64,000 nucleotides of DNA from Candidatus Cloacimonadales bacterium (lineage in GTDB: Bacteria > Cloacimonadota > Cloacimonadia > Cloacimonadales > JAIOQZ01): positions 480,001 to 544,000 of the forward strand of contig CAXXTU010000002.1 in NCBI GenBank assembly GCA_963662655.2, read 5' to 3'. Position numbers and translations under genes: made by a program. Of the stretch, positions 2,843 to 26,761 are shown piece after piece. Under the pieces are notes generated by a model. It was not told the DNA's origin, did no database searches, and saw only the letters and a program-made list of their open reading frames with translations. Position 1 is the stretch's first letter. Each line of letters begins with the position of its first letter.

Positions 2843-3718
2843 TTAGAAGTTCCTGATCAGTATCTCTGAACTCGCTCTGTTCGTTCCAGACACCGAGTAT
2901 CTCGTGTTCACCACATCGATGGTGAAGTTCTTGTACAGCTCGCGGATAACGGGGTGGTCATTGTAGCTGAGCAGCCATTTGCCCTGCACCTCGCGTAGCA
3001 GCTTGGCCAGCTCCTCGTGCTGGTCAAAGGCAGCCACCTTGTCGCGCTCGTAGAGCATCTCACGCTCGTAGTAGGGCGGGTCGATGTAGAAGAACGTCGC
3101 TGGTCGGTCGTACTTGCGGATGACGGCCTCGTAGTCGAGTCGCTCGATGATCACGTCTCGTAGCCTCTCACTGGCAGCTTCCAGCTTGCCCACGCGACGG
3201 ATCGGCAGCATGGTCAGGTGACCGCGCACGGCGAACGTGCTGCTGAGACTGCCGTAGGAACACGCCAGCACGTAGTAGAAGCGCACCGCGCGTTCGAGGT
3301 CGGTGCGCGACTCGCTATCGAGGAACTCGTGGAACAGCTCCCGCGAGGCGAGAAGCCGGTCGAGTTCCGCTTTCAGCGCGGCCGGATGGTGCTTCACATG
3401 CCGCCAGAAATTCACCAACTCGCCGTTGATGTCGTTGAGGATTTCGCGGTACTTCTGGCCCTTCGTCGCCTGCCATTCCTTGTGGTCGCGCGACTTAGCG
3501 AACAGGATCCATGCTGCACCAGCAAAGGGTTCGCAGTTATGGCGAACGCCGATAGGCGTGAGTCCTGACCAGCTATCCAGCAGGTTCAAGCTGCGAGTTT
3601 TCCCGACGTAGTGGATTCGTGCTTCGCACTCACCATGTGTGTCGTGCTTCGGGATGAGCGGAACAATCGCCTTGCGCAAGAGTCGCTTGCCGCCCACCCA
3701 GCCGATGACGCTATTCAT
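2843..3718 (-). CDS. Dam-family (D12 class) N6-adenine DNA methyltransferase with an in-frame ~33 aa insert
   Basis: WVGGK...EPFAGAA motif I, LNDIN, DPPY catalytic motif, W-LSYND; extra segment before CEPF that the adjacent paralog lacks. Confidence 0.9.
   Translation of the reverse strand: MNSVIGWVGGKRLLRKAIVPLIPKHDTHGECEARIHYVGKTRSLNLLDSWSGLTPIGVRHNCEPFAGAAWILFAKSRDHKEWQATKGQKYREILNDINGELVNFWRHVKHHPAALKAELDRLLASRELFHEFLDSESRTDLERAVRFYYVLACSYGSLSSTFAVRGHLTMLPIRRVGKLEAASERLRDVIIERLDYEAVIRKYDRPATFFYIDPPYYEREMLYERDKVAAFDQHEELAKLLREVQGKWLLSYNDHPVIRELYKNFTIDVVNTRYSVSGTNRASSEILIRNF
3539..3636. repeat. 98-nt four-way-junction insert (inverted doublet of GGYGA-hairpin-GARTCC)
   Basis: Minus strand: ATGGTGA GTGC-GAA-GCAC GAATCC N47 GGACTC ACGCC-TATC-GGCGT TCGCCAT. 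Confidence 0.85.
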
Positions 3719-4472
3719 CTGACACCTCGTAGTTTGCGATGATAACCTCCTTGAACATGCTCTCGCCCTTCATCCGGTTGATCCCCTTCACGCGAGAGAC
3801 CGGGATGATGGTGTGACCAGCGTACAGCTCGCGCACCTCAGGGCAGTCGTCGTAGGAGAGTAGCCAGCGGCCTTTCACGCCCTTCAATACGTCGCGGAGC
3901 TTCTCGTGGTCGAAGTGTCTGGCGTTGGCGTATGTCGTGCCATGCACGTATGGCGGGTCGCAGTAGAAGAACACGCCGGGCCGGTCGTAGAAGGCGATCA
4001 GCTCCTCGTAGGGCAGGTGTTCGATGGTCACCTTGTCGAGCCGCGTGCTGAGGTCGTGGACGCGAGCTAACTTGCGCTGCATACTGCTCGGACCTGATGT
4101 CGAGGCGCGTCCGAAGTGTTCGCCCTTGCCGCCGAACGAGCGGGTGATGATGTAGAGGAATCGCGCGGCGCGTTGCAGCTCCGTGAGTCCGGGCTGCTCG
4201 ACCAGCTCGTCGAACAGGGCGCGTGAGGCTGGCATCAGCTCGAGCTCCTTCACGAGCGCGTCGGGGTGGAACTTCACCTGCAGGAAGAGGTTCGTCAGCC
4301 GCGCATCGAGGTCGTTGTACACCTCGAGACGAGCCCAGCGGTCACGGTGAAAGAGCACCCAACCCGCGCCGCCGAACGGCTCTACGTAACCGGTGATGTC
4401 GTCCGGCACCAATGCGGCGATTTTCTTTCGCAGCAGCTTCTTGCCGCCGATCCATGTAATCAGACTATCCAT
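3711..4472 (-). CDS. Dam-family N6-adenine DNA methyltransferase
   Basis: WIGGK, YVEPFGGAGW, YNDLD, CDPPY, WLLSYDD. Confidence 0.92.
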   Translation of the reverse strand: MDSLITWIGGKKLLRKKIAALVPDDITGYVEPFGGAGWVLFHRDRWARLEVYNDLDARLTNLFLQVKFHPDALVKELELMPASRALFDELVEQPGLTELQRAARFLYIITRSFGGKGEHFGRASTSGPSSMQRKLARVHDLSTRLDKVTIEHLPYEELIAFYDRPGVFFYCDPPYVHGTTYANARHFDHEKLRDVLKGVKGRWLLSYDDCPEVRELYAGHTIIPVSRVKGINRMKGESMFKEVIIANYEVSDE

Positions 4473-4743
4473 TTGATTTCCTTGTGGTTTCGATGGCGAG
4501 GCAGTAGCGGAGGTAGAGTTCGGGCAAGCTCAGCTCGATGAAGTCAGCCTGCGTGAACCCCACCCCGCGCAGGGCCATCTCGAGCCGTTCGGTGGCGAAA
4601 CACGAAGTGTTGAGTCCATGCTCTAAGGACTCGTGCTTGCGCACTCGCCTGTAGCTGTCCCCGCTTCGACCCGCGCCGTGTAGCCCAAAGCGTCGAGCAA
4701 GGGCGTCAACGCGTGCCAACTGCCTCTGACAGCCGAGAAAAAA
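4465..4743 (-). CDS. Tail assembly chaperone -1 frameshift extension (gpGT-like)
   Basis: The -1 frame from slippery T TTT TTC (4743-4737) reads without a stop into ORF 4465..4719 (...LEMALRGVGFTQADFIELSLPELYLRYCLA). Confidence 0.7.
   Translation of the reverse strand, partial: FFLGCQRQLARVDALARRFGLHGAGRSGDSYRRVRKHESLEHGLNTSCFATERLEMALRGVGFTQADFIELSLPELYLRYCLAIETTRKSNG
4594..4649. repeat. 56-nt four-way-junction insert, same family as 3539-3636
   Basis: Minus strand: GGCGA GTGC-GCAA-GCAC GAGTCC TTAGAGCAT GGACTC AACAC-TTC-GTGTT TCGCC. Confidence 0.85.
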
Positions 4744-4976
4744 GCCGTAAACGCCTCCGCCGCCAGCTCGGGGCCGATGTCCTCGGGCTCGCGTCCGGTG
4801 AGGATACGCAGGATGTCGATGTCGACGTGGGATTCTTCGAGCAAGTCCAGGAAGTCGACTTCGCTTAGCTCGACCTCGTTACCGGCGAGCAGGTCGGTCA
4901 GCCCATCGCGGAGTTGATCGTTGCGAAGCAGCGTCGAGAGTACCTTGCGGAAGGTCGCGTATGAGATGTCCATCAC
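4623..4976 (-). CDS. Putative tail assembly chaperone (gpG-like)
   Basis: 117 aa acidic helical protein between the putative tail tube and tape measure genes; contains an X XXY YYZ slippery site. Confidence 0.65.
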   Translation of the reverse strand: MMDISYATFRKVLSTLLRNDQLRDGLTDLLAGNEVELSEVDFLDLLEESHVDIDILRILTGREPEDIGPELAAEAFTAFFSAVRGSWHALTPLLDALGYTARVEAGTATGECASTSP

Positions 4977-5173
4977 GCCCCCAGAAAGGTCTTCACGGCG
5001 ACGCCAATCAGCAGAAAGAACTGGCTGACGGTCAGGCTCGTGAGCAGCTTGATATTCGTCTCCAGACGCGCAATTCGGGTGACCATCGACCGGCTTGAAT
5101 CGCCGTTGCCGTACACCTCCTTGTGCACGTCCGAAATCTTCTTACGAATTTCAGGATCGCATCTGCATTCCAT
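4973..5173 (-). CDS. Small phage protein, coiled coil plus C-terminal TM (holin-like?)
   Basis: 66 aa; 4-nt overlap with the next gene; hydrophobic C-terminus. Confidence 0.6.
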   Translation of the reverse strand: MECRCDPEIRKKISDVHKEVYGNGDSSRSMVTRIARLETNIKLLTSLTVSQFFLLIGVAVKTFLGA

Positions 5174-5181
5174 GATTTCTC

Positions 5182-5727
5182 CTATTCGACCGTGGCCGGA
5201 ATCTTGTTGAAGAAACTGACCTTACCGCTCGTCTTGCCGGTGAACTCGGTCGTCACCTCTTGGGTATAGAGGCCGTCCGCTTCGCCGCTCCAGTCCACCG
5301 TCCAGCGGCAGCCGTTGATCAGCACGGCCTGCGTCTTGTCCTTGGACACGGCCACGAGCGTGATCTGCGCCATCCCCGCGCTCTGCTCCTCGAGCCAGTT
5401 CTTCTTGTCCTCGTTGATGCCGACGATCGTGACGGTGACGACATTCGTTCGCTTGCCTTCGATCTGGTAGTGCCGAGTCTTGAGCTTCTCCGTCTTCGAT
5501 TCGACCTTGAACGGCTTCTCGGCCAGTTCGCCGAGTTCCTCGAAGTTGGATGAAATCTCGGTTTCCATCGACGCCTGACTCGCGAACATCGCGGTGATTT
5601 CGCTCCCTGTCAGCTCGCCGACCCCGACGTGGACGTTGTAGACGTCCACGCCGCCGATCTGGTTGAGCAGGTTCGCAAGGTCGCCAGAGCTCATGCCGGT
5701 GGGTAGGGTGGGTTTTTCGACGGGCAT
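5182..5727 (-). CDS. Putative major tail (tube) protein
   Basis: 181 aa, beta-rich and acidic; position between head genes and chaperone/tape measure; RBS GGGAG. Function inferred from position. Confidence 0.55.
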   Translation of the reverse strand: MPVEKPTLPTGMSSGDLANLLNQIGGVDVYNVHVGVGELTGSEITAMFASQASMETEISSNFEELGELAEKPFKVESKTEKLKTRHYQIEGKRTNVVTVTIVGINEDKKNWLEEQSAGMAQITLVAVSKDKTQAVLINGCRWTVDWSGEADGLYTQEVTTEFTGKTSGKVSFFNKIPATVE

Positions 5728-5736
5728 CGCGGCTCC

Positions 5737-5937
5737 CTACGCGCTTTTAACGATGTTGTCGCAGTGCGCGAGGATGAAGCCGACGATGGCCTCCTTGAAC
5801 TCGCGGAACTTGGCCACGAAGGCGTCGTCGATGGTGTTCTCGCTACGCTTCGCGAGGGCTTCGAGCGCGCTGATGACGGCGTCCACAATCGGCTCTGCGA
5901 GAGCCTTGATCGCCTGTTTGAGTATCCACTTCCACAT
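5737..5937 (-). CDS. Small amphipathic phage protein
   Basis: 66 aa with AAAGGAG RBS upstream. Confidence 0.65.
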   Translation of the reverse strand: MWKWILKQAIKALAEPIVDAVISALEALAKRSENTIDDAFVAKFREFKEAIVGFILAHCDNIVKSA

Positions 5938-5958
5938 ACGTAACTCCTTTCAGTCGTT

Positions 5959-6051
5959 AATTATGAATTAGGAATTATGAATGATGACAACTGGCGGTTT
6001 GGTCGCGTCTGTGCCTTCATTTCTAATTGCTCATTCCTCATTCATCATTGA
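5959..6051. repeat. Inverted arrays of 7-nt tandem repeats
   Basis: AATTATG AATTAGG AATTATG AATGATG ... TCATTTC TAATTGC TCATTCC TCATTCA TCATTGA. Confidence 0.8.
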
Positions 6052-6057
6052 TTTTGG

Positions 6058-7829
6058 TTAGTCGGTGAGTTGGTAGAATTTCACGAAGCCGGGAACGTAG
6101 GTGATGCCGGGCCGGATGCGGATGTACCAGTGATACTTCCAGTCCGAGCCGTGGTGCTCGACCTTGAGTTCGGCGTCCGTGCGGTAGCCGATGATGATGA
6201 ACTTCGTCAGGCCGCAGACGATGTAGTTGTCAGGCAGGAGCCGCGCCTTGACCGGGATGCCGCTGAAGCTGACCTTGCCGCCCTCCAGGAGCAGCTTGTC
6301 GCCCTTGTTGGTCTCGCGTTGGCCAAGCTCCGTGCGAATGCGAATGAGGTCTTTGTGGCTCACATAGATGCGGAAGCTCTCCTGCTCCTCCAGCATCTCG
6401 TCGGTGAATGCAAGCAGCACTTGCTCGAACCGTTCGGTCCACTCGTCGTAGGTGGTGGGACTGATGGCGGTGATGTCCGTGCCATCGGTCGCGAGCTTCA
6501 CGAGACCGTTGAGAGCCTTCAGCTTGGCGGTCGCCGACGCGCGGTCGCCTCGGAACAACAGCAGACGCATCGCCTTCTCGGTCTTGCGCGCGATGTGCTG
6601 CTCGACGTAGGCCCCGAACGCATCCTCGCCGTACTTGTCCTTGTAGAACTCCACGACGTCGCGCCCCAACGTGAACTCGGCCATCAGGATGCCGGTCGGG
6701 CAGGACAGATCGGCGGTGGCGACGTCTTGCGCACTCAGAGTGCCGTCCAGCGAGTTGTGGAAGATCAGGTCTTCGATCAGGCCGACGTCGATCTTCTCGT
6801 CCTTGAGCAGCGGGATGACCGAGATGTCGGTGAGCGTGTCGCCGGGCTTGGAGCCGATCACTTCGTCGATGAACAGACTCGTGTTGTTGGGCGTGAGGAT
6901 GCTCATCGCCTTGCCGGAATCGACGTCCGCGATGCCCTTGTAGATCTCGCGGTGCGCGGCCTTCACGAGCACCTTCTCGCCGTTGACGATCACTTCGCGG
7001 TCACCGCCGTCGGCGTCGGGTTCGCCCTGAATGCTCTTCGAAATCGCGCGACTCATCGTGGCCGAGAGGCTGTCGAGACTCTTCTCGATGGACTTCACAG
7101 CCTCTCGCAGACCGCCGTCGCCGATGCCGTTCTCCAGCCTCGAAACCTTGCTCTCCAGCTCGTCGATGGCGGACTCGAGCTCCGCTTCGCGGTCGGCGTC
7201 CTTGAGCGACTTCTTCAGGTCGCGCAGCCCCGCAATCTCGTCGCGGATGGCCTTCAAGGTCTCGCCGGTGTCGTTGTAGTCGTCAGCGCGACCGTAGATC
7301 GACACGCCATTGAAGTCGCCCTTCTCGACTTTTTTCCACAGCGCGGAATCGAGGTCGTCGCACTTCAAGACCTGCACCCAAGCTCCAACTTTCGTGTCGG
7401 GGAAATGGGTCCTGTCCTCGGTCTTGAGGATGTAGTTTTCGGCCACCGAGAAGTCGTCGATCGGGTGGTTGTTGTGGTTGATGTCGTTGCGCCCGACCAT
7501 GTAGTGGCGGCTTGCGAAGCAAACGCCAGCCCTCAAGCGTGTCTGCTGAAGTGGTCGCACGCCTTCTGGATCTCCTCGGCCGTGTAGAAATCGCCCTGCG
7601 CGTCCTTCACGTCCGGCTCCATCAGGGTCACGAACAGCCGCCCTTGACGGCCTTTCGTCTCGCTTTTGAACTTCACGGACGAGCCGCGCACCTTGTACGC
7701 TTTTCCGCTCGCGGCCTTCACCACGAAGCCCTTCTGATTGGCGGGATTCATGTCGTCGAACAGGAGCGACACGAGCTCCACCTCGACGTTGCGCAACTCA
7801 CCCTTGCGCACGGTTTTACGTTCTGTCAT
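6058..7829 (-). CDS. Prohead protease (XkdF-like)-major capsid fusion, interrupted by a 35-nt insert
   Basis: ORF 7533..7829 (VELVSLL...PAN.KGF, EPD.KDAQGD) and ORF 6058..7560 (DINHN, VAENYI, W..V.KG.FNG.SI.G, coiled-coil scaffold, capsid-like C-terminus) join into 579 codons when 7504-7538 is removed. Confidence 0.8.
7504..7538. repeat. 35-nt hairpin insert with a GCGAAGC core
   Basis: Plus strand: TGGCG-GC-TTGC-GAA-GCAA-A-CGCCA; flanked by a duplicated CAC on the coding strand; carries the in-frame TGA. Confidence 0.75.
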
Positions 7830-10708: not shown

Positions 10709-11225
10709 GGGGCGAGAGTAGAATGAGTACGCAAGGATGGCAAAGCGGGTTGCCCACGTATGACACAGGAATAATATTATTCAGAATTATTTATTTTTTG
10801 AATTAGTTATACTAATGGAGAACAGATCACAAATATACGAAGGAGTACGATGTGTGCGGCAAATAATGATATTCCGTTACCTTTTTCCATCAGAGAAACA
10901 AAGTAAAAACATGCTAATATGCTGCGGATTCTCGATTTAACCTTTTGTTGATTAAATGTGTATAAAAAAATATTTGACAAGATGGGATTCCAAGCCTATT
11001 GATTAGTTAATCAATGCTAACATCAGAATTCTCTTGGATATGTGTGTGTGGGGGGGGTGTAATTATAAGATATGCATTAATAATACAAATTATGCTTTTC
11101 TTGGAGGGATTATGTAGTACGATGGAAGAATTGGCAGTGCAAATGAATGAGATGTGATTGATCTTGCAGGAACTGTTGACACCTAACAATTAACTGAACG
11201 TTAGTACAAAATCTCAGGAGGAATT

Positions 11226-14006
11226 ATGAAACGAGTAATTTTATGCGTCTCTCTGGTGTTGACGATGGTCAATATTTGTTTTGCAACAACCTATATCGTG
11301 GCAAACAACGGAACTGGAGACTTCCTGAACATTGCCTCTGCGGTTGCTGCGGCAAGCGATGGTGATCAGATCGTTATTTATGGCACTGGGCAAGATTATA
11401 CTGGGACACAGAATCGAAACATTGTTCTGGATGGATCTCAAAAACATCTCAGGATTATTGGCATGAATAATCCCGTCATAGACCTTGAAAACACAAGCAG
11501 AGCTTTTATAGCCCAGAACACGAATGCAAGCGATTGCATTACCGATATCAGGTTTGAAAACGGGCTTGTAACATCCAACTATGTTCAAGGTGGGGCAATC
11601 ATGCTTAGCAGTGGTGAGCTTTACGTTGAGGATTGCGAATTCTGGTACATGATGATAGCCGGCGAGTATTTCAAAGGTGGTTCAATTTCAGTAGGCGAAG
11701 ATGCCTCGGCTACGATCGTGAACTGTAACTTCTACAGCGGTGGCTATACAGGTACGCTTACATTACCTGGGAATAGGACGATAGCCGGAGGAGTAATCTA
11801 CTCTCAGGACGCTGAAGAGATCATTATTAGTAACTGTCAATTTATCGGAAACTCCGCAAAATTTGCTTCGTGTATTGGAGTATCCGGGGATACGGATATC
11901 GAGATCACAAATTGCAGATTCTCAAGCAATATGTGCTTTATGAGCGGCACAATATGTGTATGGGGAACGAGCCAAATAAGTGATGCATTGATACAAGATT
12001 GTGAATTCTCGAACAATATAGCTCAGAGCGGTGATCCTGGGATATATGCACAGCAAACATGCGTAAGTATAAGTGGTATGAATAGTTGTTTGATTCAGAA
12101 CAATGAATTTGATGGCAACAGGGCAGAAGACGGATCTGCTTGTATCTATTTCTTTCATATCACAGATATGGTCATTGACAACAATGAGTTCACCGACAAT
12201 CGAATCATCGAAGGCGGAGGAGCTACCGCCGCTAATAGCATCTCTGCATCATCATGTTCCGCCCATATCCTCAATAACAAGTTTATCGAGAATTATGGAA
12301 TGTCCCCCTGCATATCACTAGCCAATGTCACATATAATGATCCAGCATATGTCGAATTGAATATATGGAACAACACCTTCGATAATACTGTGTCAATAGG
12401 TAGTTACTACCATCCGCTCATATTCAATCATATACTTGACAGTAGTGGGATTAATGTAGATATCGATGTGAGAAACTGCATCATGATCAACAATGACGCA
12501 CTGGTTTTGTTTTACTCGCCTGACTTTGATTATGGGGATATTTACTGTGACTATGCCTGGATGAACAATAATACTTGCCATCCAATTCCGCCATTGTTTG
12601 ATGAATTTGTTACGTATGGCCAGAACATGTTCAGTGGAAATCCTTACCTTGATACGAGCCACACTCCTATGTGGAACTCAAGTGTTCGCTCACCGGTTAT
12701 CGATGCGGGATATCCATCAATCGCGGACGATGACGGAACCCCGAGCGATATCGGTGCCGTTCGAGCTCAGGATCATGATTTCGAGAGATACTCCTATCGG
12801 GCTCCAGGATTTGGATCTGCCAGCGATTATGAATGGGTATGCTACCCGGTTGTCGATAACGTCTATACGGCCGAAAACAATGCCTCGGACTTCTTTGAAG
12901 ATATTGATGAAGATTTAACGGCTCTAGGGCACAATAATGTATGGGGCACTGACTATGGTACCTATTGGGAGTATCCCTGGGAAGATGATCCGGACGATAC
13001 CGATCCTACTGATGGATTCAAATTACAGGTAAGTTCCGGTACCGTTATGAATAAGGTTGGGTTTCTTGCCGATCCCGATACCGAAATTACACTAACGGCC
13101 TCTAGCTATTCATATTGGATCGGTTATTTCATCGAGGAAAGCCAGTATCCTCTTGATGCCCTTGCAGACGTTCTCGACGATCTGACAGAGATCAAACATC
13201 ATGACTGGACACTTGTAAAGACAGGCTTGGGCTGGCTTGGGGGAAGTTCTTATACGATCAACTATGGCGATATGGTTGAATTGACCTGTGAATCCAATTG
13301 TTCATTCGCATGGAACGATAACCTCAGCCGAACGGCTCCTGCTTATAAAGAGCAAACAAGCCATTACAGCGTTGAAGAAGATGCGGGTTATACACCGGTG
13401 TACTTGGATGTAAGCGGATATTCGGATAACATGCCCGAAGAGATTGGCATGTATGCCGATGGTGAATTGATCGGCGCTACCGTGGTTGATGGTGAGATAA
13501 CGCAGATCAACGCATATGTGGAAGACATTGAAAACCTCGAAGAAGCCGAAGTAAGCTTCGAGCTTTTCTATGGTGATCGTGCACCGCTTGTCGGATGTGA
13601 CATGTATAAGGTAAATTCAGATATAACCGAGGACTATATCAAGACCACACATATGTTCGAGACTCAGTCGCGTTACTATCAGGTTACGCTTGGGAAGGGT
13701 GGTGTCGAGACTCTTGTTCCCGATCTTCCGGAAACTGTCAGTATCAATAACTATCCCAACCCGTTTAACCCGGAAACGACCGTATCCTTTACCTTGCCTC
13801 AGGATGGCAAAGTGAGTATCAAAGTGTTCAACGTTCGCGGTCAGTTGGTGAAGACATTGGTTGACAACAATCTGAATGCCGGCAAGCATGAAATCGTGTG
13901 GAATGGCCGTGATGAAGAAAATCGTCAGGTTGGTTCAGGCATCTACTTCTGTCGTCTTCAGACAGCAGGAAAGATACTGAACCGTAAGCTGTTGATGATG
14001 AAATAA
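11226..14006 (+). CDS. Secreted right-handed beta-helix protein with FlgD-Ig/T9SS-like C-terminal domain
   Basis: Signal peptide, pectin-lyase-like repeats (I.NC.F..N.A), SP.IDAG...DIGA, C-terminal NYPNPFNPET...GIYFCRL. Confidence 0.85.
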   Translation: MKRVILCVSLVLTMVNICFATTYIVANNGTGDFLNIASAVAAASDGDQIVIYGTGQDYTGTQNRNIVLDGSQKHLRIIGMNNPVIDLENTSRAFIAQNTNASDCITDIRFENGLVTSNYVQGGAIMLSSGELYVEDCEFWYMMIAGEYFKGGSISVGEDASATIVNCNFYSGGYTGTLTLPGNRTIAGGVIYSQDAEEIIISNCQFIGNSAKFASCIGVSGDTDIEITNCRFSSNMCFMSGTICVWGTSQISDALIQDCEFSNNIAQSGDPGIYAQQTCVSISGMNSCLIQNNEFDGNRAEDGSACIYFFHITDMVIDNNEFTDNRIIEGGGATAANSISASSCSAHILNNKFIENYGMSPCISLANVTYNDPAYVELNIWNNTFDNTVSIGSYYHPLIFNHILDSSGINVDIDVRNCIMINNDALVLFYSPDFDYGDIYCDYAWMNNNTCHPIPPLFDEFVTYGQNMFSGNPYLDTSHTPMWNSSVRSPVIDAGYPSIADDDGTPSDIGAVRAQDHDFERYSYRAPGFGSASDYEWVCYPVVDNVYTAENNASDFFEDIDEDLTALGHNNVWGTDYGTYWEYPWEDDPDDTDPTDGFKLQVSSGTVMNKVGFLADPDTEITLTASSYSYWIGYFIEESQYPLDALADVLDDLTEIKHHDWTLVKTGLGWLGGSSYTINYGDMVELTCESNCSFAWNDNLSRTAPAYKEQTSHYSVEEDAGYTPVYLDVSGYSDNMPEEIGMYADGELIGATVVDGEITQINAYVEDIENLEEAEVSFELFYGDRAPLVGCDMYKVNSDITEDYIKTTHMFETQSRYYQVTLGKGGVETLVPDLPETVSINNYPNPFNPETTVSFTLPQDGKVSIKVFNVRGQLVKTLVDNNLNAGKHEIVWNGRDEENRQVGSGIYFCRLQTAGKILNRKLLMMK

Positions 14007-14143
14007 TTTCGGCTTCAGCGAAGCTGAAACGAAAACATGAGTGATGTAATCCCGAATATTCGGGACTACACTAGCGGATAATCATAATCCAGCCCCGCCT
14101 CCAACTCCCTCTCCCGCTTGCGGGAGAGGGTTGGGGTGAGGGT
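14007..14143. repeat. Cluster of intergenic palindromes including a REP-like element
   Basis: TTCAGC-GAA-GCTGAA, then a TGTAATCCCGA/TCGGGACTACA stem, then CCCTCTCCCGC-TT-GCGGGAGAGGG-TTGGGGTGAGGG. Confidence 0.7.
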
Positions 14144-14159
14144 GTATTAAGGAGACCTC

Positions 14160-16529: not shown

Positions 16530-16556
16530 TCCTGTTTGGATCACTCGGGATGTAGC

Positions 16557-17048
16557 ATGGATTATGTTTCAAAAGAAATCAGAAGCCGCATGATGAGCTC
16601 GGTCCGTTCCAAGAGCACAACGAATGAAGTACTGATTCGAAAGTCTCTGTTTCATCTCGGACTAAGATACGGGCTTCACAACAAAAACCTTCCCGGTCGT
16701 CCTGATATCGTGCTTCGCAGACATAGAACTGCAGTGTTTGTAAACGGATGTTTCTGGCACATGCATGGTTGTCACTTAAGCTCTATCCCCAAAACGAGAG
16801 TGGATTGGTGGCGAGACAAGCTTATGAGCAACAAAGCAAGGGATATCTTGAATTACAAAAAGCTATTGAGTATGCATTGGCGTGTCGCTATTATTTGGGA
16901 TTGTGCTTTAAAAGGCAAGAACGGATTGACAGCAGAATTCATTGCTTTAAAATTGCAATCATTCTTAATTGATGATGTCTCTGTCATTTGTTGTGGTGGC
17001 AGGGGAATTACTTACCCAACAAACATTGAAGGTGTGTACTATGGCTGA
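16557..17048 (+). CDS. vsr: Very short patch repair endonuclease
   Basis: RS.MMS.VRSK.T..E, LPGRPDIV, FVNGCFWH.H, W..K...N..RD. Confidence 0.92.
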   Translation: MDYVSKEIRSRMMSSVRSKSTTNEVLIRKSLFHLGLRYGLHNKNLPGRPDIVLRRHRTAVFVNGCFWHMHGCHLSSIPKTRVDWWRDKLMSNKARDILNYKKLLSMHWRVAIIWDCALKGKNGLTAEFIALKLQSFLIDDVSVICCGGRGITYPTNIEGVYYG

Positions 17049-19203
17049 AATTGATCTTCCTTTCAAAGTCCACCCAAGAGTGTTTTCTGCTCTCGGTGCA
17101 GAGCTTGTAACGGATGACATTGTTGCTGTTATTGAGTTGGTTAAAAATTCGTATGACGCTTTTGCACAAAGAGTACTGATAAGCCTTGAGTTTGGGTACA
17201 AGAGCATTTCGATCATCGATAACGGTTCCGGAATGGACAGGAAGACAATTGAGGACGTTTGGTGTACATTGGCTACGCCAAATAAGGTAAACCTCCCGTT
17301 TAGCGAAAAAGACAACAAGAAAAGGCGTGTTACAGGAGCCAAAGGGTTAGGGAGATTATCTGCTGCAAGGCTTGGTGGAAAGCTTGAAATGATTACAAAA
17401 GCAATGGGGCAACCGGCATGGAAAGTATCCGTTGATTGGGAGTTGATTAAAAAGGCTCAAGGATTTGAACTTTGTAATGCTCATCTTAAAGAATATACGG
17501 GAAAACTCCCATGGGGTGATGATAATCAAACCGGTACATCGGTTGTGATATCGAATCTCACTTCTACATGGGATGTGGACATGATAAAAGCTCTCAGGGA
17601 TAACTTGGGACGGCTAATATCCCCCTTTGCCCAAACAACAGATTTTGAGGTGCTTTTTTCTGATATCACGGACGATATTACATTTGATGCTCCAGCAATC
17701 GAGGTCAAGCCATACAGAATCGAACCATCACCCTTTCTACTTGAACCAAAATATCGGATTAAGGGCTCGGTTGATCCGACTGGTGGGTATTCAGGAAAGT
17801 ATGAGTTTCGCCAAATAGGGTCAGATAAGATCGATAGAGAAGTCGCCATCACTAAGAAATGGGTTGATATCTTTCGTGAATGGAGTGAATCGGAAAAAGA
17901 AGGGCACAATGAGAAATCAGCCGTTTGTGGGCCCTTCGATTTTGAGATCCGGGTTTGGGATCTCGATTCTTATGATACAAGTGAAATAGCCGAGTACTAT
18001 CAAATAAAGAAGAAATCAGATATCAGAAAAGCCATTGCAGCTCACAAGGGTGTTTCCGTGTACAGAGATGACATTCTTGTTCTTCCCAAAACAGATACTG
18101 CACGTGATTGGTTGAGGCTTGACTTGCGACGTGTTAGCCGAGTAGGTGATCGACTGAGTACAAGCCAGATTATCGGTTTCATCTCTATCTCTGCTGACAA
18201 GAATCCTGACATCAATGATTCAAGTGATAGAGAGAAACTTCAAAAGAGTACTGCAACTGTAGAATTTGAGCGCATTATTCATTCAATCATTCATGATCTT
18301 GAGCAAGAGAGAAATGCTGATAGATTTGTAAAAAATGTACATAAGGAGAAACGACTTGTTGAGCTTTTCGAGTCATTCGCACAACGCGATTTTCTTGATC
18401 GATACAAACGACTTGCAGAAGAGGGAACTCCGGCAATAGACCTGCTGCCATTGCTTGAATCGGAACACAGCGATTGGGAAAAAGCAAGTGAGGAGATTAA
18501 ACGACGCTTCGTTTATTACAGTCGACTGGCGACTGTTGGCTCTATTGCGGAAATGCTGATTCATGAGATCAGGAACAATACAACTTGCATCGGTCGATTC
18601 CTGCGTCTCTTCACGGATGAGATAAATGAATGCTCGGCTCAATTGGAGAAGTACCACGGTGTTTCGGAGAATTCAGTTGAAAGACTTGAGCATTTGTCCG
18701 ACACGTTCTCCCCCTTAGCAACCAGGAAATTCAAGAGAACAAAACGAAACTCGGACTTACAATCTCGTCTTGATTTTTGTCTCGAGTTGCATGAGAAAGA
18801 GATTGATGCAAAGAAAGTAACGATTACCCAATCCATTCCTCAAGCTATCATCTTGCGAATTGATCCCGGTGAATTAGATGCTATACTGATAAACCTAATC
18901 ACAAATACACTGTATTGGATTGCCGATAGCAATGAGTCCATGCGTAAGTTGAATATTTCAGCCAGCACAAACGGGAGTAGGCTCGAGATAGTGTTCGATG
19001 ATACAGGCCCCGGAATCAGGGACGGCTATGTCGATAGAATATTCGAACCTGGAGTTACAGCAAAAACCAATGGTATCGGAATGGGGTTGACCGTTGCATC
19101 TGAACTTGTTTCGGCATGTGGTGGAAGGATGTCAGTCATACACCCCGGTACATTGGGCGGAGCTACATTTGTTTTCGATATGCCAATTTTGGAGGTAAAA
19201 TGA
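17041..19203 (+). CDS. MORC/GHKL ATPase fused to a histidine kinase
   Basis: N-terminal ELVKNSYDA, DNGSGM, GAKGLGRLS; C-terminal HEIRN (H-box), NLITN, DDTGPG, GIGMGL; no TM segment. Confidence 0.88.
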   Translation: MAEIDLPFKVHPRVFSALGAELVTDDIVAVIELVKNSYDAFAQRVLISLEFGYKSISIIDNGSGMDRKTIEDVWCTLATPNKVNLPFSEKDNKKRRVTGAKGLGRLSAARLGGKLEMITKAMGQPAWKVSVDWELIKKAQGFELCNAHLKEYTGKLPWGDDNQTGTSVVISNLTSTWDVDMIKALRDNLGRLISPFAQTTDFEVLFSDITDDITFDAPAIEVKPYRIEPSPFLLEPKYRIKGSVDPTGGYSGKYEFRQIGSDKIDREVAITKKWVDIFREWSESEKEGHNEKSAVCGPFDFEIRVWDLDSYDTSEIAEYYQIKKKSDIRKAIAAHKGVSVYRDDILVLPKTDTARDWLRLDLRRVSRVGDRLSTSQIIGFISISADKNPDINDSSDREKLQKSTATVEFERIIHSIIHDLEQERNADRFVKNVHKEKRLVELFESFAQRDFLDRYKRLAEEGTPAIDLLPLLESEHSDWEKASEEIKRRFVYYSRLATVGSIAEMLIHEIRNNTTCIGRFLRLFTDEINECSAQLEKYHGVSENSVERLEHLSDTFSPLATRKFKRTKRNSDLQSRLDFCLELHEKEIDAKKVTITQSIPQAIILRIDPGELDAILINLITNTLYWIADSNESMRKLNISASTNGSRLEIVFDDTGPGIRDGYVDRIFEPGVTAKTNGIGMGLTVASELVSACGGRMSVIHPGTLGGATFVFDMPILEVK

Positions 19204-20264
19204 GAGTACTTGTTATTGATGACGATAAAAATAGCATAGAGCCTTTGCTGGATGACCTGAATGAACAAGAGCACGAAGCTTGTTTCAATAACTTTGTCGA
19301 TGAATCGGAAATACTGAAGCTGGTATCAGACACGTTGCCAGACCTACTTGTTCTCGACTTGAAAAATGCCGCTCAGCAATCGGGTGACAATGATATAGCA
19401 GGTTCAAAGATTTTCGAACAAATATGGCAAGAACGATTCTTTCCGGTTCTGATTTACTCTGCATATCCTGATTTAGTCTTAAATAGACTTCCGAAAAACC
19501 CGTTTATAGGAAGAGTAACGAAGGGTGCGAACTCTGAAAAGGAAGTAATAAATTGGATTAACGGGAAACAGAATGTTGTTGAATTGCTTCATGAGATTGA
19601 TAATGAAGTGGCAAAATCAAAACACGATACCCTCAAGTCCATAACCCATTATCTTGGTGAAGGTTTACCGGAAGCGAAAATTGTTAGCTATCTTATTAAA
19701 AGACGTGTCGCAGCACTAATGGATATTGCCGACGGTGACATTTCGGTTCCGGCGTGTTTCAGATACATTTATCCACCAATATGTAAGTATTCAAGGATGG
19801 GAGATGTAATTGCAAAGAGGGATAGCAAAGAATTCTGGATAATTCTAACTCCATCCTGTGATATGGGCGATGATGGGCAAGAACCGAAAGTAAAAAAAGT
19901 TATAGCTGCTCGGTGCTATGAAATTAGTCCAGATCGAGTTGACGAGTTCAAGTTTGGAAAGAAGAAGAACAAAATACGACAAGTTCTAACTCAAGGACAT
20001 CAAAAAGAATTCATACCGATACCTTCATTGCCTGAAAAGTTTCCTCATTTAGTTGTGAATTTTAAGGAAATCGAATTAATACCAATCGAAGAAATAGGGG
20101 ATTCTGATAATGTGAAGTATAGGAGAATCGTCTCAATTGATAGCCCCTATCGCGAGCAAATCTCTTGGGCATTCATTCAGGTAGCCGGTCGTCCGGGAGT
20201 ACCGAGTGTTGATATTGATAAATGGGCAGAGGAACTTGAAGTACTATTCGGTGGGAACTCATGA
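19200..20264 (+). CDS. Receiver-domain protein with an uncharacterised C-terminal domain
   Basis: MRVLVIDDD, DLLVLDL (phospho-Asp), IYSA; C-terminal ILTPSCD; start overlaps the kinase stop (ATGA-like coupling). Confidence 0.8.
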   Translation: MRVLVIDDDKNSIEPLLDDLNEQEHEACFNNFVDESEILKLVSDTLPDLLVLDLKNAAQQSGDNDIAGSKIFEQIWQERFFPVLIYSAYPDLVLNRLPKNPFIGRVTKGANSEKEVINWINGKQNVVELLHEIDNEVAKSKHDTLKSITHYLGEGLPEAKIVSYLIKRRVAALMDIADGDISVPACFRYIYPPICKYSRMGDVIAKRDSKEFWIILTPSCDMGDDGQEPKVKKVIAARCYEISPDRVDEFKFGKKKNKIRQVLTQGHQKEFIPIPSLPEKFPHLVVNFKEIELIPIEEIGDSDNVKYRRIVSIDSPYREQISWAFIQVAGRPGVPSVDIDKWAEELEVLFGGNS

Positions 20265-21316
20265 TCGGTCTTGATTTTTTTTGCGGAGCCGGTGGACTTA
20301 CCAGAGGATTAATAGATGCCGGAATACAGGTTCTTGGCGGTATTGATTTGGATAATCGGTGCAAAAATACATATGAGAACAACAACAATGCCGTATTTTG
20401 GGATGCCGATATTCGTGAAATCAATGGACATATGATCAAAGAGCGTTTCCCGAAGCTCTTTAAACAAACTGACGATGTCCTTTTTGCTGGATGTGCACCT
20501 TGTCAGCCGTTTAGTCAACAGAGAAATTCAAAAACAGAAAGACCGGACAAAAACATCTTACTTGAATTCGGTCGTCTTATTGAAGAGTGTAAACCTGGGT
20601 GGGTTCTTATTGAGAATGTACCGGGTATTGCATTAAGTCGAGATCCTAAAACAACGCCATATAGTTGTTTTCTTAAAATCCTTAATCGTTGTGGATATCG
20701 ATATGCTCCGGATTTCATTAACGCTAAAGATTACGGTGTTCCACAAAATCGCAGACGCTTCGTTCTGCTTGCGACAAGAATACCCGATATAGAAATAACT
20801 CTTCCAAAAAAGACACATGGCTCTGGTCTTGCGGAATACAAAACTGTCCGACAAACTATTTCGCAATATCCTCCAATATCGCAAGGAATGACGGATTCAT
20901 CCATTCCGAATCATACAAGCGCTAAATTGTCTCCTATCAATTTGCATCGCTTACAAGTGACTCCACATGATGGCGGCGATAGGCGTTCATGGCCAGAGCA
21001 TCTTGTGCTCAAGTGCCATAAAAATCATTCTGGACATACTGATGTATATGGGCGTATGTATTGGGGACAACCTGCTCCGACTCTGACAAGTAAGTGCACT
21101 AGTATCTCTAACGGTAGGTACGGACATCCGGAACAAGATAGAGCAATTTCACAAAGAGAAGCAGCAGCGTTACAGACATTTCCCGATGATTACGTCTTTT
21201 TCGGTTCGACTCCATCGATTGCCATGCAAATAGGGAATGCAGTACCTGTATTGCTCGGAATGCGTCTTGGCGAGCATATATTAGATTTACTCAACAGGAC
21301 AAATCGGGGTAATTAG
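20261..21316 (+). CDS. dcm: C5-cytosine DNA methyltransferase
   Basis: DFFCGAGG, APCQPFS, ENV, YGVPQ.R.R, REAAALQTFP, QIGNAVP. Confidence 0.95.
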   Translation: MIGLDFFCGAGGLTRGLIDAGIQVLGGIDLDNRCKNTYENNNNAVFWDADIREINGHMIKERFPKLFKQTDDVLFAGCAPCQPFSQQRNSKTERPDKNILLEFGRLIEECKPGWVLIENVPGIALSRDPKTTPYSCFLKILNRCGYRYAPDFINAKDYGVPQNRRRFVLLATRIPDIEITLPKKTHGSGLAEYKTVRQTISQYPPISQGMTDSSIPNHTSAKLSPINLHRLQVTPHDGGDRRSWPEHLVLKCHKNHSGHTDVYGRMYWGQPAPTLTSKCTSISNGRYGHPEQDRAISQREAAALQTFPDDYVFFGSTPSIAMQIGNAVPVLLGMRLGEHILDLLNRTNRGN

Positions 21317-22074
21317 TGCTTAAATACGCATTCAGAACTAATGATGTCTATTCTCGAAAAGATGTGTATCGTGTAATCGGTATTTCCGAGGACACTCATG
21401 GTGGAGTATGGGACACCGGCTATGCAATACACAATGAAGACTATTTCATCTTCACAAACGTTGGAGTGCCTGGAAGGACCGGTCATAATTACAAAAACAG
21501 ATTTGAAGGTGACCGTCTCATCTGGTTCGCCAAAACAGTACCAAAAATAGGGCAACCGCAGATCAAGGAACTATTATCTCCACCAGGATATGTGTATGTG
21601 TTTTTCCGTACTGAGAACAAAGCTCCCTTTACCTATGCAGGCACTGCAATACCAATAGCTTTCGAGGATGTTTCGCCTGTCCAAATAACCTGGCAAATAA
21701 TTAATGAATATACTCATACAACCATAATGACTGAAGAAGACACCGAATTACATGAGGGGAAAGCTCTTTATCGTACGGGATTAATCTTCGAACGAAATCC
21801 TTTAGCACGTAAAAGATGCATTGATCATTACGGATGTCGTTGCTATGTATGTGGTTTTAACTTTGAATATGTGTACGGAGAAAAAGGGAGAGGATTCATC
21901 CATGTACACCATTTGGTTCCTCTTTCCAACATAGGTTCCGACTACATTATCAATCCTATTGAAGATTTGAGACCCATTTGCCCTAATTGTCATGCAATGA
22001 TTCATAGGCAGTCACCAGCTCTTTCGATTGATGAACTGAAGCATGAGATGAGAAATCAGTACGATTCCGAGTAG
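21316..22074 (+). CDS. HNH endonuclease with N-terminal PUA/SRA-like (DUF3427-like) domain
   Basis: C-terminal C..CGF.F...YG..G.GFIHVHH..P...DL.P.CPNCHAMIH (McrA-like HNH); N-terminal domain assignment is inference. Confidence 0.85.
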   Translation: MLKYAFRTNDVYSRKDVYRVIGISEDTHGGVWDTGYAIHNEDYFIFTNVGVPGRTGHNYKNRFEGDRLIWFAKTVPKIGQPQIKELLSPPGYVYVFFRTENKAPFTYAGTAIPIAFEDVSPVQITWQIINEYTHTTIMTEEDTELHEGKALYRTGLIFERNPLARKRCIDHYGCRCYVCGFNFEYVYGEKGRGFIHVHHLVPLSNIGSDYIINPIEDLRPICPNCHAMIHRQSPALSIDELKHEMRNQYDSE

Positions 22075-22118
22075 TTCTCAATCCCCTGAAAATACTGCAG
22101 ATATCCCCGCTAATATAC

Positions 22119-22146
22119 TTGACTTCCTTTGCGCGATCTTTATCGT
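22119..22146 (+). promoter_or_regulatory. Putative sigma70 promoter
   Basis: TTGACT-16 nt-TATCGT upstream of the AAGGAG RBS. Confidence 0.45.
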
Positions 22147-22226
22147 AGAGACATACTTAGGAGCACAAAGGAGACTTATGCGTTCCCAAGGGGAACGGCC
22201 CTTGCGGATCGCGAAGCGACCGCCCG

Positions 22227-22526
22227 ATGGAGACGAAAAAGACCACACAGACCACCCCGAAGACGATGATCATCAACGCGAAGATTTCAGGTAGTATGAG
22301 AGCTACTTTCAAGGGCGAAAACGGCGAGGTGATGAAGAACTACGACGGCCCAGTACCGGAGTTCATGCCGGAGCGACACTGGGGAGATTACATCAACCTC
22401 GAAATCGACATCGAGACAGGCCGCATCCTCAACTGGAACACCACCCGGCATGACGTAGCCGATTTCATGAACGCACCTGAAAACACCGCAGACTTCACCG
22501 ACCCCGACGAAGAATTAGCTCCATAA
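22227..22526 (+). CDS. Small phage-type hypothetical protein
   Basis: 99 aa (VPEFMP...GDYI.LEIDI.TG.ILNW); own promoter and terminator. Confidence 0.7.
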   Translation: METKKTTQTTPKTMIINAKISGSMRATFKGENGEVMKNYDGPVPEFMPERHWGDYINLEIDIETGRILNWNTTRHDVADFMNAPENTADFTDPDEELAP

Positions 22527-22535
22527 ACACCGACA

Positions 22536-22556
22536 ACTGGCATTACCGCCAGTTTT
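22536..22556 (+). terminator. Intrinsic terminator
   Basis: ACTGGC-attacc-GCCAGT followed by TTT, between convergent genes. Confidence 0.55.
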
Positions 22557-22588
22557 CCTCGTTGGTCCCTTTTACTCCTACAAATCCC

Positions 22589-23467
22589 CTAAATCACCAC
22601 CTCCGTCCCTGTCCTGCACTTCCAGTGGAACGGCGGGAAAGGCGTGTGGCTTCCTGAGACGCCGGTGGGCTTGCCGGATGCGTTTCGCTCTATCATGTCG
22701 TCGCTGACCCACGGCGCAAGCTCCTTCGTGCGTTCTCGCGCGGATTCGAGGCTGTGCTGCTTCGGATCGATGGCGAGCAGGTCTTCCATCACATCGAGCG
22801 CGTCGGAGAGCGGATAGACCTTGTTCTGCGCGGCAAGGGCGCGGCAGATATCCGACGTACGATCATCGAGGACGACCACCAGCCGGTAGTACCTTGCGCC
22901 GGCCTTGCGATACCCCTCCAGCCTTCCAAACTCCCGAATCCTCAGCGCGGTATGCTCCGCAAGCCCCTGCCAGTAGTGCTGCGACTTCGCGCCCAAGTCC
23001 TTGAACTGCTCCGCGAGCTTCTCTTGCAACATCTTTTTCGTGTAGCCTGACGCGACAGCCTCGGTCAGTGTGGAGCGAAACTTCTGCGAAATGTCCGTGC
23101 CGTAGCGTTCGCCGATCCAGAAAAGGTTCTGGCGGGTGATGACGGTCTCGAGACGCTTTTCACGCGCACCGTACAAGCCGATGCGAGTGTTGTGCGGAAC
23201 CTGCTTTTGCGCGTCGTTTAAGCCCGGCAGCATGCACCGCTGGATGTACGCCTTCGTCTCGGCTCGCACAGCGGACGAAAAATCCTCGCCGAGGTTGGAG
23301 TCAATGACGGCGAGAACGTCGTCGATATGGGTGCGATTGAGCCGCTCGTGACGTGGAATGTCCGACAACGCCCTGATGGCCTGCATCGCCGACTCGCGCA
23401 CCTCGCGCTGCCAGGCGTTGTTGAGGACGCGGTAGTACTCGAGCATGATGCGGTCGAAGTAGGTCAA
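22589..23467 (-). CDS. Phage head morphogenesis protein (Mu gpF/SPP1 gp7-like)
   Basis: DDRTSDICR and PPFHWKCRT motifs; probable TTG start overlapping the terminase stop. Confidence 0.85.
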   Translation of the reverse strand: MTYFDRIMLEYYRVLNNAWQREVRESAMQAIRALSDIPRHERLNRTHIDDVLAVIDSNLGEDFSSAVRAETKAYIQRCMLPGLNDAQKQVPHNTRIGLYGAREKRLETVITRQNLFWIGERYGTDISQKFRSTLTEAVASGYTKKMLQEKLAEQFKDLGAKSQHYWQGLAEHTALRIREFGRLEGYRKAGARYYRLVVVLDDRTSDICRALAAQNKVYPLSDALDVMEDLLAIDPKQHSLESARERTKELAPWVSDDMIERNASGKPTGVSGSHTPFPPFHWKCRTGTEVVI

Positions 23468-25067
23468 AACCGGAAGCTCCGAACTCTGGTTCTGTTGCGG
23501 CCGGTGTCGTATTCGGGGAAGCGTTCGAGGCAGCCTGCGAGGGCGTCCGGGCCATCGACGTAGCCCTGCGGATAGGTGAGGAACTGGCTGACGAGGGTCG
23601 GCGTGTCCTGCCCGTCGGGAAAGACGACCTTGCCGGTCTCGATGACGGTGTCCACGCGCTCGATGCGCAGAGCCTTGTTGCGGTCGTTGTTGACGCGCCG
23701 GATACGGTGCGAGATGGGATTGCGCCCGTTCTCGCGGCACCAGCGGTCGAAGTCGGCGAGGATGCGGTGCTGCCCGTAATTGGTCTCCATCGCGGCGCGG
23801 AAGCGGACCCCGAAGCGGTGCGACAGCTCGTCGCAGGCGTCGTAGTAGAACTGGAAGAAACGCGAGTTTTCGGTCTGGCGCACCCAGCAGTGGATCATGT
23901 AGAACTTCAAGCCGTCGTAGCCCAGGGAGATTATGGCTTTGTAGCAGCCTGTTTGAACGAAGTGAAAACCGCCAGCGCCAGGTTTTTGCGAAGCAAAATA
24001 CCGAGAGCGACTACCTTTAATGCTGGGTCGGCGTACATCCAGACGCGCTTCATGCGCTTGGGCAGGTGTGAATACCGCTTGAACCAGTGGTGCTTGAACA
24101 TGTTGCCCTCGATCACCGGCACGCCGAGAAACTCGCGCTGATAGCCCGTGTGACCGAACTTGCGGCGCAGCAAAGGCAGCTCGCTGGTCGGGTACTGCTT
24201 TTCCCAGACCGACTTGCCGTCATCGGTTTCCAGAGAGAAGCGCAGCAGCCGCCTTCCCTCTGCGAACAGATGCTGGATGTCGTCCGGATTGAAGGAGTCG
24301 TTGTCGGACTTGATCTCCTCGACGATCGACTCCATGAACTGGCATATCGCGTAGTTGGGGTGGACGAGGTTGCCGAGCCAGATCACCTTGCCCGTACCAG
24401 ATGGATCGAGCGCGCCGCCGATCTCCTGCACGATCTTGTCCATGCGCCGCCTGCCGATGGTCTGGTTCCCGACGTTCTCTTCCTTGTCGATGTCGTCACA
24501 GACGATCAGGCCGGGGCGCGTGGAGGTGCGGGGATTGATCGAGCCGCGAAAGGATTGCTTCACACCTCGTGCGCGAATACGGCAGCGGTTGCGGAGGTAG
24601 AAATCATCCTCGGTCGTGTCGATGGGACGCAGGTCGTCGAAGTCGCCGAGAAGCCGCTTGTTGTTGGTCAGCTCGTTGAAGGTGAACGCCGTCCTCTCCT
24701 CCGCCAGATCGACGTCGGCGGCCGTGTGGATCACGTACCTCTCGCCCTTGATCACCCGCCAGATCGGATAGACGACGCCCATGAGCACGGTCTTGCCCAA
24801 GCCGCGAAATCCCGTGATGGCGGTAACGCCGCTCTCGGCTTCCACCACCTCGAACATCTCGCGGTGACAGTCACAGAAGGGGTGCTCGAAGATATGCGGG
24901 AAGTAGCTGCAGCAGAAGAAGGAAAAGGACGACCAACCCTCGCCTGTGGCGCGTTCGATGCGCGCCTTGCGAGCTTGCGGGGAGTCGTCGGGGAAGGGTT
25001 TGACCGACGGTGTCTTCGCCGCGACGGAAGTGAAGAAGCGCAGGTCTTTCTGGGTCGGTTTAGGCAT
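23464..25067 (-). CDS. Terminase large subunit, interrupted by a 71-nt insert
   Basis: Walker A GFRGLGKT, Walker B IVCDD, nuclease YADPA; ORFs 23931..25067 and 23464..23910 (DGPDALAG) join into 511 codons when 23950-24020 is removed. Confidence 0.85.
23950..24020. repeat. 71-nt double-hairpin insert with GAA triloops
   Basis: Plus strand: GTTTGAAC-GAA-GTGAAAAC and GGT-TTTTGC-GAA-GCAAAA-T-ACC extended by CGCC/AGCG. Confidence 0.75.
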
Positions 25068-26569: not shown

Positions 26570-26761
26570 TCCAAGCAGTTTTTCCTTCACTCTGTACAAT
26601 GAAGCCTTATTGCGCTCTTCTTCGACGAACTGCGGCATGAGATTGCGCACAGTCTTAGGATGAAGTCCCGTGTCGTTCGCTACATCAGCCACCCTAAATG
26701 GTCTCCTATGGTATTCGATAAATCGGTCGATGATACGCTTCGCAGGAATGTTAGGACGCAT
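26549..26761 (-). pseudogene. Probably truncated early-region wHTH gene
   Basis: HTH-like start (VADVANDTGLHPKTVRN) then runs into AT-rich moron DNA at about 26610. Confidence 0.5.

Follow-up and report, generated by a model that had tools for sequence, protein, structure and literature searches.

We describe a set of very small, hairpin-forming DNA inserts lodged in genes of a Mu-like prophage of a Candidatus Cloacimonadales bacterium. The prophage occupies positions 1 to 30.9 kb of the stretch of DNA analyzed, which is 64,000 nucleotides (nt) long (the window; G000:C2:480001-544000, G000 being the genome that holds it), and encodes MuA, MuB, a repressor, terminase, MuF, portal, a protease-capsid protein, and two D12 methyltransferases. 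Comparison of filled with empty alleles reveals that the segments are insertions that replaced 1 to 19 target bases without duplicating any, in either orientation; they are confined to mobile DNA, recur as identical copies in unrelated alleles, and have conserved ends. We give an even chance to the reading that they are non-autonomous mini-elements with one precise end, joined after a C of the target, that spread between multicopy mobile DNAs by homing-like conversion.

Five hairpin inserts and their empty sites

A preliminary description of the window, made from the sequence alone, had pointed to five structured segments in the prophage genes, and all five proved to be hairpin-folding, true inserts. 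Alignment of the 150-nt flanks to the G000 genome and to 160 IMG/VR loci recovered empty alleles for 5/5 sites, both in sister prophage copies (four of them within G000) and in IMG/VR relatives. Several further full or partial copies of the same phage family are present in G000 at 85 to 99% identity, and filled and empty alleles coexist in this one genome at 85 to 95% identity. The limits of the inserts were refined against the closest empty alleles, with the junctions placed by hand (Table 1).

Table 1. Positions in the window of the hairpin inserts, related or neighboring repeats, and the early genes
Feature	Positions	Strand	Remarks
M-family multibranch hairpin	3538..3638	-	101 nt for 2 nt, net 99, in frame
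M-family four-way junction	4591..4653	-	63 nt for 3 nt, net 60
K-family bulged hairpin	7502..7537	-	36 nt for 1 nt, net 35, frameshift
S-family double hairpin	22177..22224	+	48 nt for 1 nt, net 47
T-family double hairpin	23950..24021	-	72 nt for 13 nt, net 59, frameshift
Family A copy	30909..31026		architectural relative of M inserts
Family B copy	14007..14034	-	same bulged-hairpin grammar as capsid insert
AT-rich 104-nt insert	5948..6051		different family, 7-nt periodic arms; intergenic, 3' of capsid gene
Mu-like early region	26751..30490		MuB 26751-27485, MuA 27502-29544, repressor 29807-30490

The first insert lies just before the S-adenosylmethionine-binding motif of the second D12-class adenine methyltransferase (2843-3718) and removes a conserved Tyr/Phe. 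The second falls at the stop codon of the open reading frame (ORF) 4623-4976, extending that upstream ORF, and is in frame for the downstream frame 4465-4719; position and a T7 run suggest that these frames are a tail-chaperone-like G/GT pair, for which no family match was found. The capsid insert splits the XkdF-protease/capsid gene into 7533-7829 and 6058-7560, with loss of a Gly kept in 76/76 homologues, and the terminase insert splits the large subunit into 23931-25067 and 23464-23910, deleting the WGEK codons beside the invariant D347. The remaining insert is placed between the ribosome-binding site and the start codon of the small phage ORF 22227-22526. Hence, the proposal that the inserts break their genes holds for the capsid and terminase only; those in the methyltransferase and chaperone are in frame, and that of the small ORF precedes the start. 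Intact terminase and capsid genes are still present in G000.

An exact GCGAAGC core occurs on one strand of four of the five inserts, as had been noted. Their folding z-scores against shuffles range from -1.4 to -5.2, those of the methyltransferase (-1.4) and terminase (-1.7) inserts not being significant on energy alone. Enrichment of the motif in the prophage is seen only when a stem of at least 4 bp is included (1.26 per 100 kb of host genes versus 12.1 in prophage, i.e., ten times denser); without a stem, the heptamer abounds in both (24.9 per 100 kb of host genes and 45.1 in prophage). The 2- to 3-nt repeats at the insert edges, which had been listed in the preliminary description, do not represent duplications of the target: at the empty sites, it can be seen that target bases were replaced, 1 to 13 of them being lost.

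An assembly artefact was considered and ruled out by the recurrence of the inserts in several copies and species and by separately assembled contigs that span them. Contigs of the runs X1 and X2, which represent one sample that may be the source sample of the assembly, cross the methyltransferase, chaperone, and terminase inserts without differences; for the capsid and small-ORF inserts, no bridging contig was found among the X1/X2 pieces listed.

The preliminary description had also raised the idea of removable switches, according to which the segments would be spliced from RNA, hopped over by ribosomes, or excised from DNA, thereby turning virion genes on. We find this barely credible. It can draw on the CAC codons that flank the capsid insert on both sides with a stop nearby, on the purifying-type divergence of the insert-bearing alleles, and on the conservation of the folded ends. 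However, a CAC-to-CAC hop in the capsid would give Tyr in place of the invariant Gly, and a hop in the terminase would yield a protein without WGEK. The residues D347, A349, G351, and K353 are invariant in 37 terminases, and the filled allele has no codons for G351 and K353; D347 is presumably catalytic, judging from its invariance and general knowledge, and a PDB sequence search returned no match reaching the terminase nuclease domain. No contiguous removal restores either the capsid Gly or the methyltransferase Tyr/Phe (kept in 100/100), and the insert in an IS4 transposase (see below) removes a lysine kept in 119/120 homologues, within what we take to be the YREK motif. Further, the T and M elements are found in both orientations relative to the genes, with both strands folding equally well. 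As both orientations are used, neither splicing nor ribosomal bypass can be the general rule. Finally, DNA joints across the inserts in the X1/X2 contigs always show the letters of the empty allele, never a clean excision. The inserts are thus best explained as permanent lesions or tolerated additions rather than as switches.

A wider set of inserts confined to mobile DNA

The genus was sampled by four genomes, namely, G000 and those of three other species (G001 to G003), whose host DNA is about 75% identical to that of G000 at the nucleotide level. Together they contain 17 distinct insert sites (16 catalogued and one more), of which 16 are in prophages and one is in an IS4 transposase, and the inserts fall into the sequence families M/C, K, T, S, and N. 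The prophage targets are MuA, terminase (twice), capsid (twice), MuF (twice), the lysis peptidase, the methyltransferase, the chaperone, tail and small genes, and one intergenic position. With the Mu transposase, methyltransferase, lysis peptidase, and IS4 transposase among the targets, the initial view that morphogenesis genes are hit is too narrow. Between 1 and 19 target bases were replaced at 13/13 sites measured by script, with no target-site duplication; by eye, MuA has lost about 18 bases and the second terminase site 3, and no close empty allele exists for the IS4 site. The T element in the terminase has the orientation opposite to that in MuA, and M elements are reversed with respect to the gene at the two MuF sites. 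The first hairpin of the M family keeps 24/24 pairs, three of four changed pairs being altered on both sides (six related sequences, for which the shuffle test is a guide only). Terminal pairing is seen in full-length M elements only; no match to other loci was found in the 5.2 Mb searched.

The IS4 element (L490:547-1788 of G002, with five more copies) has multiplied with an 18-codon hairpin insert that replaces two codons of the catalytic helix. The frame is fully open in three of the insert-bearing copies; in G002, each of the 5 copies that extend over the site bears the insert, and no empty copy was found there. Over all coding inserts, 8/15 are in frame (P = 0.09 against an expectation of one third) and 7/15 shift the frame. 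A comparison of 12 close prophage copies (120 kb aligned) showed that hairpin inserts break genes at 4 sites, versus 1 single-base frameshift and 2 deletions; stop codons were found only in one reference ORF spanning several genes and are uninformative in this count. One N-family insert, at L584 in G001 and L583 in G003, endows a right-end phage gene with a new start codon, lengthening it in frame by ~25 codons, and shows a compensatory change between the two species.

Many of the sites lie in conserved parts of the proteins. Scoring was feasible for 8 of 13 sites and gave conservation percentiles of 0.99, 0.95, 0.86, 0.85, 0.74, 0.74, 0.71, and 0.30, and the MuA and IS4 inserts are both placed just after the helix with the catalytic Glu. 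That 7/8 sites exceed the 70th percentile is as expected if homing favors sites common to many alleles. It would also suit host-directed disarming, in which the host would use a system of its own to mark conserved motifs of mobile-element genes with hairpins, convert all copies, and so domesticate prophages and insertion sequences (IS), as would the excess of inserts over point lesions and the sparing of host genes. We nevertheless judge such a host mechanism, which the preliminary description had offered as an option and which has no direct support, to be improbable: 8/15 coding inserts are in frame and one insert is intergenic, 5/13 sites were not scorable and some fall within variable regions, every phage gene hit is still represented by intact copies, no G000 spacer matches the prophages over more than 19 nt, and no candidate system was found in our searches.

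The preliminary description had noticed no such insert in the host genes of the window, and this holds over about 690 kb of host genes. When G000 proteins were compared with 1.2 Mb of host DNA from G001 to G003, 628 genes (689 to 695 kb) yielded no hairpin insert but two indels, both in frame and unstructured; the reverse comparison detected no split host gene in 664 kb. Because selection could explain an absence from host genes, intergenic DNA serves better as a control. That of G000 amounts to about 443 kb, as against 124 kb of prophage, and was found to contain no copy of K, T, M, or S. Patterns for T and K run over 232 genomes of the phylum gave 9/9 matches inside prophage genes of G000 and G003. 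Likewise, with covariance models, for which the best 150 candidates per genome were scored, 12/12 M matches are in prophage genes, and 12 strong S matches are in prophage remnants or IS4, with 1 weak S match beside a remnant. The confinement to mobile DNA is thus supported more strongly than could be seen from the window alone. Among more distant phages, the 160 IMG/VR loci (2.16 Mb aligned) contained no inserts, and exact-pattern scans of IMG/VR gave no home genome for them; a loose M pattern, scanned in 5/64 parts of IMG/VR, found the first hairpin in 3/120 matches. Exact-pattern scans of GTDB contigs returned 40 matches (6 to the IS4 insert and 34 that are without the first hairpin), and those of metagenomes returned 6, all chance.

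Resident repeats offer a further point of reference. Families A, B, and C are intergenic. Family A is a four-way junction with 66 copies by pattern in G000, and in our reading its layout is that of the M inserts; a loose scan for four-way junctions gave 77 real versus 50 shuffled matches, and is useful for long stems only. Family B comprises bulged hairpins in tandem arrays with a period of 44 to 92 nt (32, 29, 8, and 44 copies in the four genomes of the genus); it was found in none of 37 other genomes and no partner gene was found for it. The capsid insert fits the family B grammar exactly (22 intergenic copies versus 0 to 1 in shuffles), and T and N align to this family at 72 to 77%. Family D consists of two long hairpins (116 to 123 nt), with 13/13 checked copies intergenic (e.g., G000:C2:1337770). 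The inserts are thus of the same kind as these resident REP-like repeats (REP, repetitive extragenic palindrome), but the genomes searched offer no intergenic home for their subfamilies. A correlation of family B with the inserts, taken from a 400-kb sample, was rejected, G001 having 29 B copies and at least two inserts.

Junctions, likely spread between alleles, and a possible mechanism

At 12/16 sites, one of the junctions has a C on the target side and then a T or A on the insert side, and two more sites are one base off (rough P = 2 × 10−5, to be read with the limits having been set by hand and the members of a family not being fully independent). Divergent alleles also share an insert at one and the same position, a situation seen for the terminase, chaperone, small ORF, methyltransferase, and IS4. 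The terminase insert shows 0/72 differences between G000 (3 copies) and G003 (2 copies), while the flanking alleles (pS, differences per synonymous site, 0.35; pN, differences per replacement site, 0.03, i.e., 2.9% of replacement sites) are as divergent as intact alleles and differ from as close as 2 and 12 nt from the insert. Nor are the filled terminase alleles nearest kin (8 exclusive shared sites versus 4 to 19 for other pairs). For the chaperone and small-ORF inserts as well, the sequences around the filled sites match different empty alleles. In IS4, 0/54 differences were found across 6 copies at a pS of 0.09 to 0.23. The older methyltransferase insert, compared between G000 and one G003 allele (flanks with pS 0.43 and pN 0.011), has 0/64 differences in its ends and 9/37 in its middle, where we read the changes as mostly falling in loops or preserving pairing. 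One G003 copy of this methyltransferase is cut off downstream.

Together these features suggest the following model for the proposed mini-elements. A single-strand nuclease that recognizes hairpins (HUH/RAYT-like or Ssn-like), supplied from elsewhere, would nick the folded element, and one element end would be joined to a target strand ending in C, the other being resolved loosely such that target bases are removed. The inserted copy might then be copied into empty homologous alleles of the same cell by a short-patch, homing-like step, co-resident empty alleles being a resource that only multicopy mobile elements would provide. Broken alleles would persist as intact sisters supply the function in trans and take them along from species to species. 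TnpA-REP enzymes cut single strands at CT and CA and join a freed 5' end to a 3'-OH (PMC8266576). Such chemistry fits one-ended transfer with a loosely resolved second end, although it serves as a lead only. A more specific version is that these are endonuclease-free homing elements in conserved motifs of transposase, terminase, capsid, and methyltransferase genes that convert empty alleles across species through a trans-acting nuclease, with almost no flanking co-conversion; this we put forward as doubtful yet possible.

In the enzyme searches, as in the preliminary description, which had seen no mobilizing enzyme in the window, none was found in G000 or beside the loci of relatives that were checked. 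The scan for partner genes gave a cognate pair only for an AT-rich 7-nt repeat (see below). The 17 Y1 loci in 5 relatives had no match to 16 inserts or their grammar, and the 14 GIY-YIG loci in 5 genomes, like the small GIY-YIG genes of G001 to G003, are flanked by other repeats. Among 73 small genes located within or near the G000 prophages, Pfam searches detected no homing-type endonuclease. HNH and Vsr genes are present in an 11-kb block that splits the prophage, and reverse transcriptases gave 4 matches in 3/5 genomes (of unlike types, one broken); for neither was a link to the inserts shown. None of the 15 CRISPR spacers of G000 matches the prophages over more than 19 nt. CRISPR-guided breaks were rejected as a source of insertion, the sole spacer match of at least 18 nt being one of 19 nt to another prophage type in G002. 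G000 has a 16-repeat CRISPR array beside cas1 (G000:C2:2317648-2318600).

Several observations weigh against the proposed model. The genus is represented by four genomes only. In the empty alleles, only about one site in two has a T or A after the C. G000 gave no Y1 transposase (PF01797) match, and of 47 RAYT, GIY-YIG, DUF559, and four-helix-bundle loci of relatives none carries these hairpins; the preliminary description had suggested looking for RAYT/HUH, GIY-YIG, or DUF559 genes flanked by them. Unrelated phage copies share identical tracts of 60 to 119 nt, as long as the insert tracts (84 to 86 nt), and with such fine mosaicism ordinary recombination may move inserts. At the peptidase site, derived bases in the flanks are common to the insert alleles, which is what a single origin would give, and these alleles simply decayed. 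Lastly, resident repeats have themselves entered phage genes (family D at three sites in G002 phage DNA, L209:4867, L209:5319, and L210:7360, two of them in a repressor gene, and family B in the phage gene or genes of G006), which would point to general accumulation under relaxed selection.

The main rival is passive import, in which REP-like repeats acquired at random from other, unsampled hosts where they are resident accumulate, are kept through complementation by sister copies, and are shuffled by ordinary recombination without drive. It gains from the entry of families B and D into phage genes, from the exact family B grammar of K and the 72 to 77% alignment of T and N to that family, and from the background tracts of 60 to 119 nt; moreover, family B being genus specific, variants may sit in unsampled species. 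On the other hand, no home was found for T/K in the 232 genomes or for S in genome and metagenome collections or IMG/VR, and passive import leaves unexplained both the contrast of 0/64 end with 9/37 middle changes in the methyltransferase insert and the presence of the insert in every covering IS4 copy. On balance we regard it as rather unlikely.

Hairpins with GAA loops are stable, and this would lend itself to another view, namely, break repair with no cognate enzyme, in which nuclease-resistant GAA-loop fragments are captured at breaks made by transposases or restriction enzymes, with few bases lost. The variable target loss (1 to 19 nt) and truncated element ends agree with it, as does the nature of the host elements, which are DDE elements that nick DNA. 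However, the same element end is used after a target C at independent sites, the genome holds no donor copies, and the ends are conserved in old inserts, all of which makes it very improbable.

Comparison with known repeats, and other features of the prophage

Literature searches found no description of these elements, most subscription journals being outside their coverage. The closest parallels are the REP/REPIN repeats (REPIN, REP doublet forming a hairpin) mobilized by RAYT (TnpA-REP), which PMC8266576 and PMC3116915 portray, like the inserts, as short, gene-less bulged hairpins with a C|T or C|A junction, asymmetric ends, and no target duplication. Unlike REP/REPIN, the inserts have no RAYT in G000 and none flanked by these hairpins in relatives; they lie in coding DNA of mobile elements rather than in extragenic DNA, and target bases are lost. 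A GTAG at the hairpin foot is present in K and T inserts and is not consistent in M, S, and N. Unlike miniature inverted-repeat transposable elements and other IS derivatives, they show no target-site duplication and no terminal inverted repeats common with an autonomous IS. The Rickettsia palindromic elements (RPEs) are likewise palindromic DNA inside protein-coding genes, although, according to PMC10969869, they are about 150 bp long, in frame, and in host genes. By contrast, the inserts are 36 to 101 nt, 7/15 of the coding ones shift the frame, and host genes are spared. The small dispersed repeats of cyanobacteria, reported by Elhai and colleagues in 2008, are said to be very small hairpins with no known enzyme and no target duplication that insert precisely, often into other repeats. 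By contrast, the inserts replace bases of the target and are carried in genes of phages and IS.

Elements that home offer a second comparison, in that the same insert occupies the same site in divergent alleles; the inserts differ in having no endonuclease gene in the element. Trans homing by free-standing endonucleases (PMC2790892) is a neighboring case. In the MobA/gene 60 bypass element of T4-like phages, as described in bioRxiv 10.1101/2022.08.31.505936, one site is used repeatedly in divergent alleles with target deletion, as here, but the element brings an HNH endonuclease and a rebuilt region that restores the protein. The inserts have no endonuclease, do not replace the lost codons, and have no working take-off/landing pair. 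Similarly, the Ssn nucleases with their SRM/NTS repeats (PMC11893778) offer hairpin repeats that a single-strand-specific nuclease could recognize, whereas the small GIY-YIG genes of G001 to G003 have flanking repeats none of which matches the inserts. The inserts are thus REP/small-dispersed-repeat-like and RPE-like and yet belong with none of these groups. We regard them as real and as a new variant among the small non-autonomous hairpin elements, set apart by their confinement to mobile DNA, target overwriting, and sharing across species.

Hairpin repeats of small size have mostly been seen in intergenic positions. In the present case, the presence of filled and empty alleles in one genome makes junctions, target loss, and spread between alleles directly legible, and what is seen points to an insertion that is one-ended and of the overwrite type, with homing-like transfer thereafter. 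Hairpin inserts are the commonest gene-breaking lesion in these prophages and add a route of decay besides point mutation and deletion. If homing applies, they would constitute a minimal class of mobile-element parasites and supply defined substrates for an enzyme hunt; if it is also endonuclease free, they would rank among the smallest self-spreading elements and be the main force breaking prophage genes in the genus.

Distinct from these inserts are AT-rich segments of 104 and 110 nt with 7-nt periodic arms, which occur at several phage sites in addition to that in Table 1 (e.g., G000:C2:478288-478397). A four-helix-bundle gene (PF05635) of a sister prophage (G000:C2:2729907-2730218) lies between these same arms, which makes it a candidate autonomous partner of this repeat. 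The prophage of the window is split by the above-mentioned block of lower GC content (about 10800-22100), lying between the lysis peptidase and the small ORF and encoding two FlgD-domain proteins, Vsr, a histidine kinase/ATPase, a C5 methylase, and HNH. The two D12-class adenine methyltransferases (3711-4472 and 2843-3718) are in tandem between the tail chaperone and the tape-measure gene and are 36% identical. An AT-rich cargo segment of 824 nt (25697-26520), located 3' of a truncated early gene, gave no Pfam or PHROG match; an identical segment is present in a G001 prophage, the two phages being otherwise 84% alike. An Rfam scan of positions 1 to 33000 detected three tRNA genes only, at 32040-32294, ~1.2 kb past the left end of the prophage.

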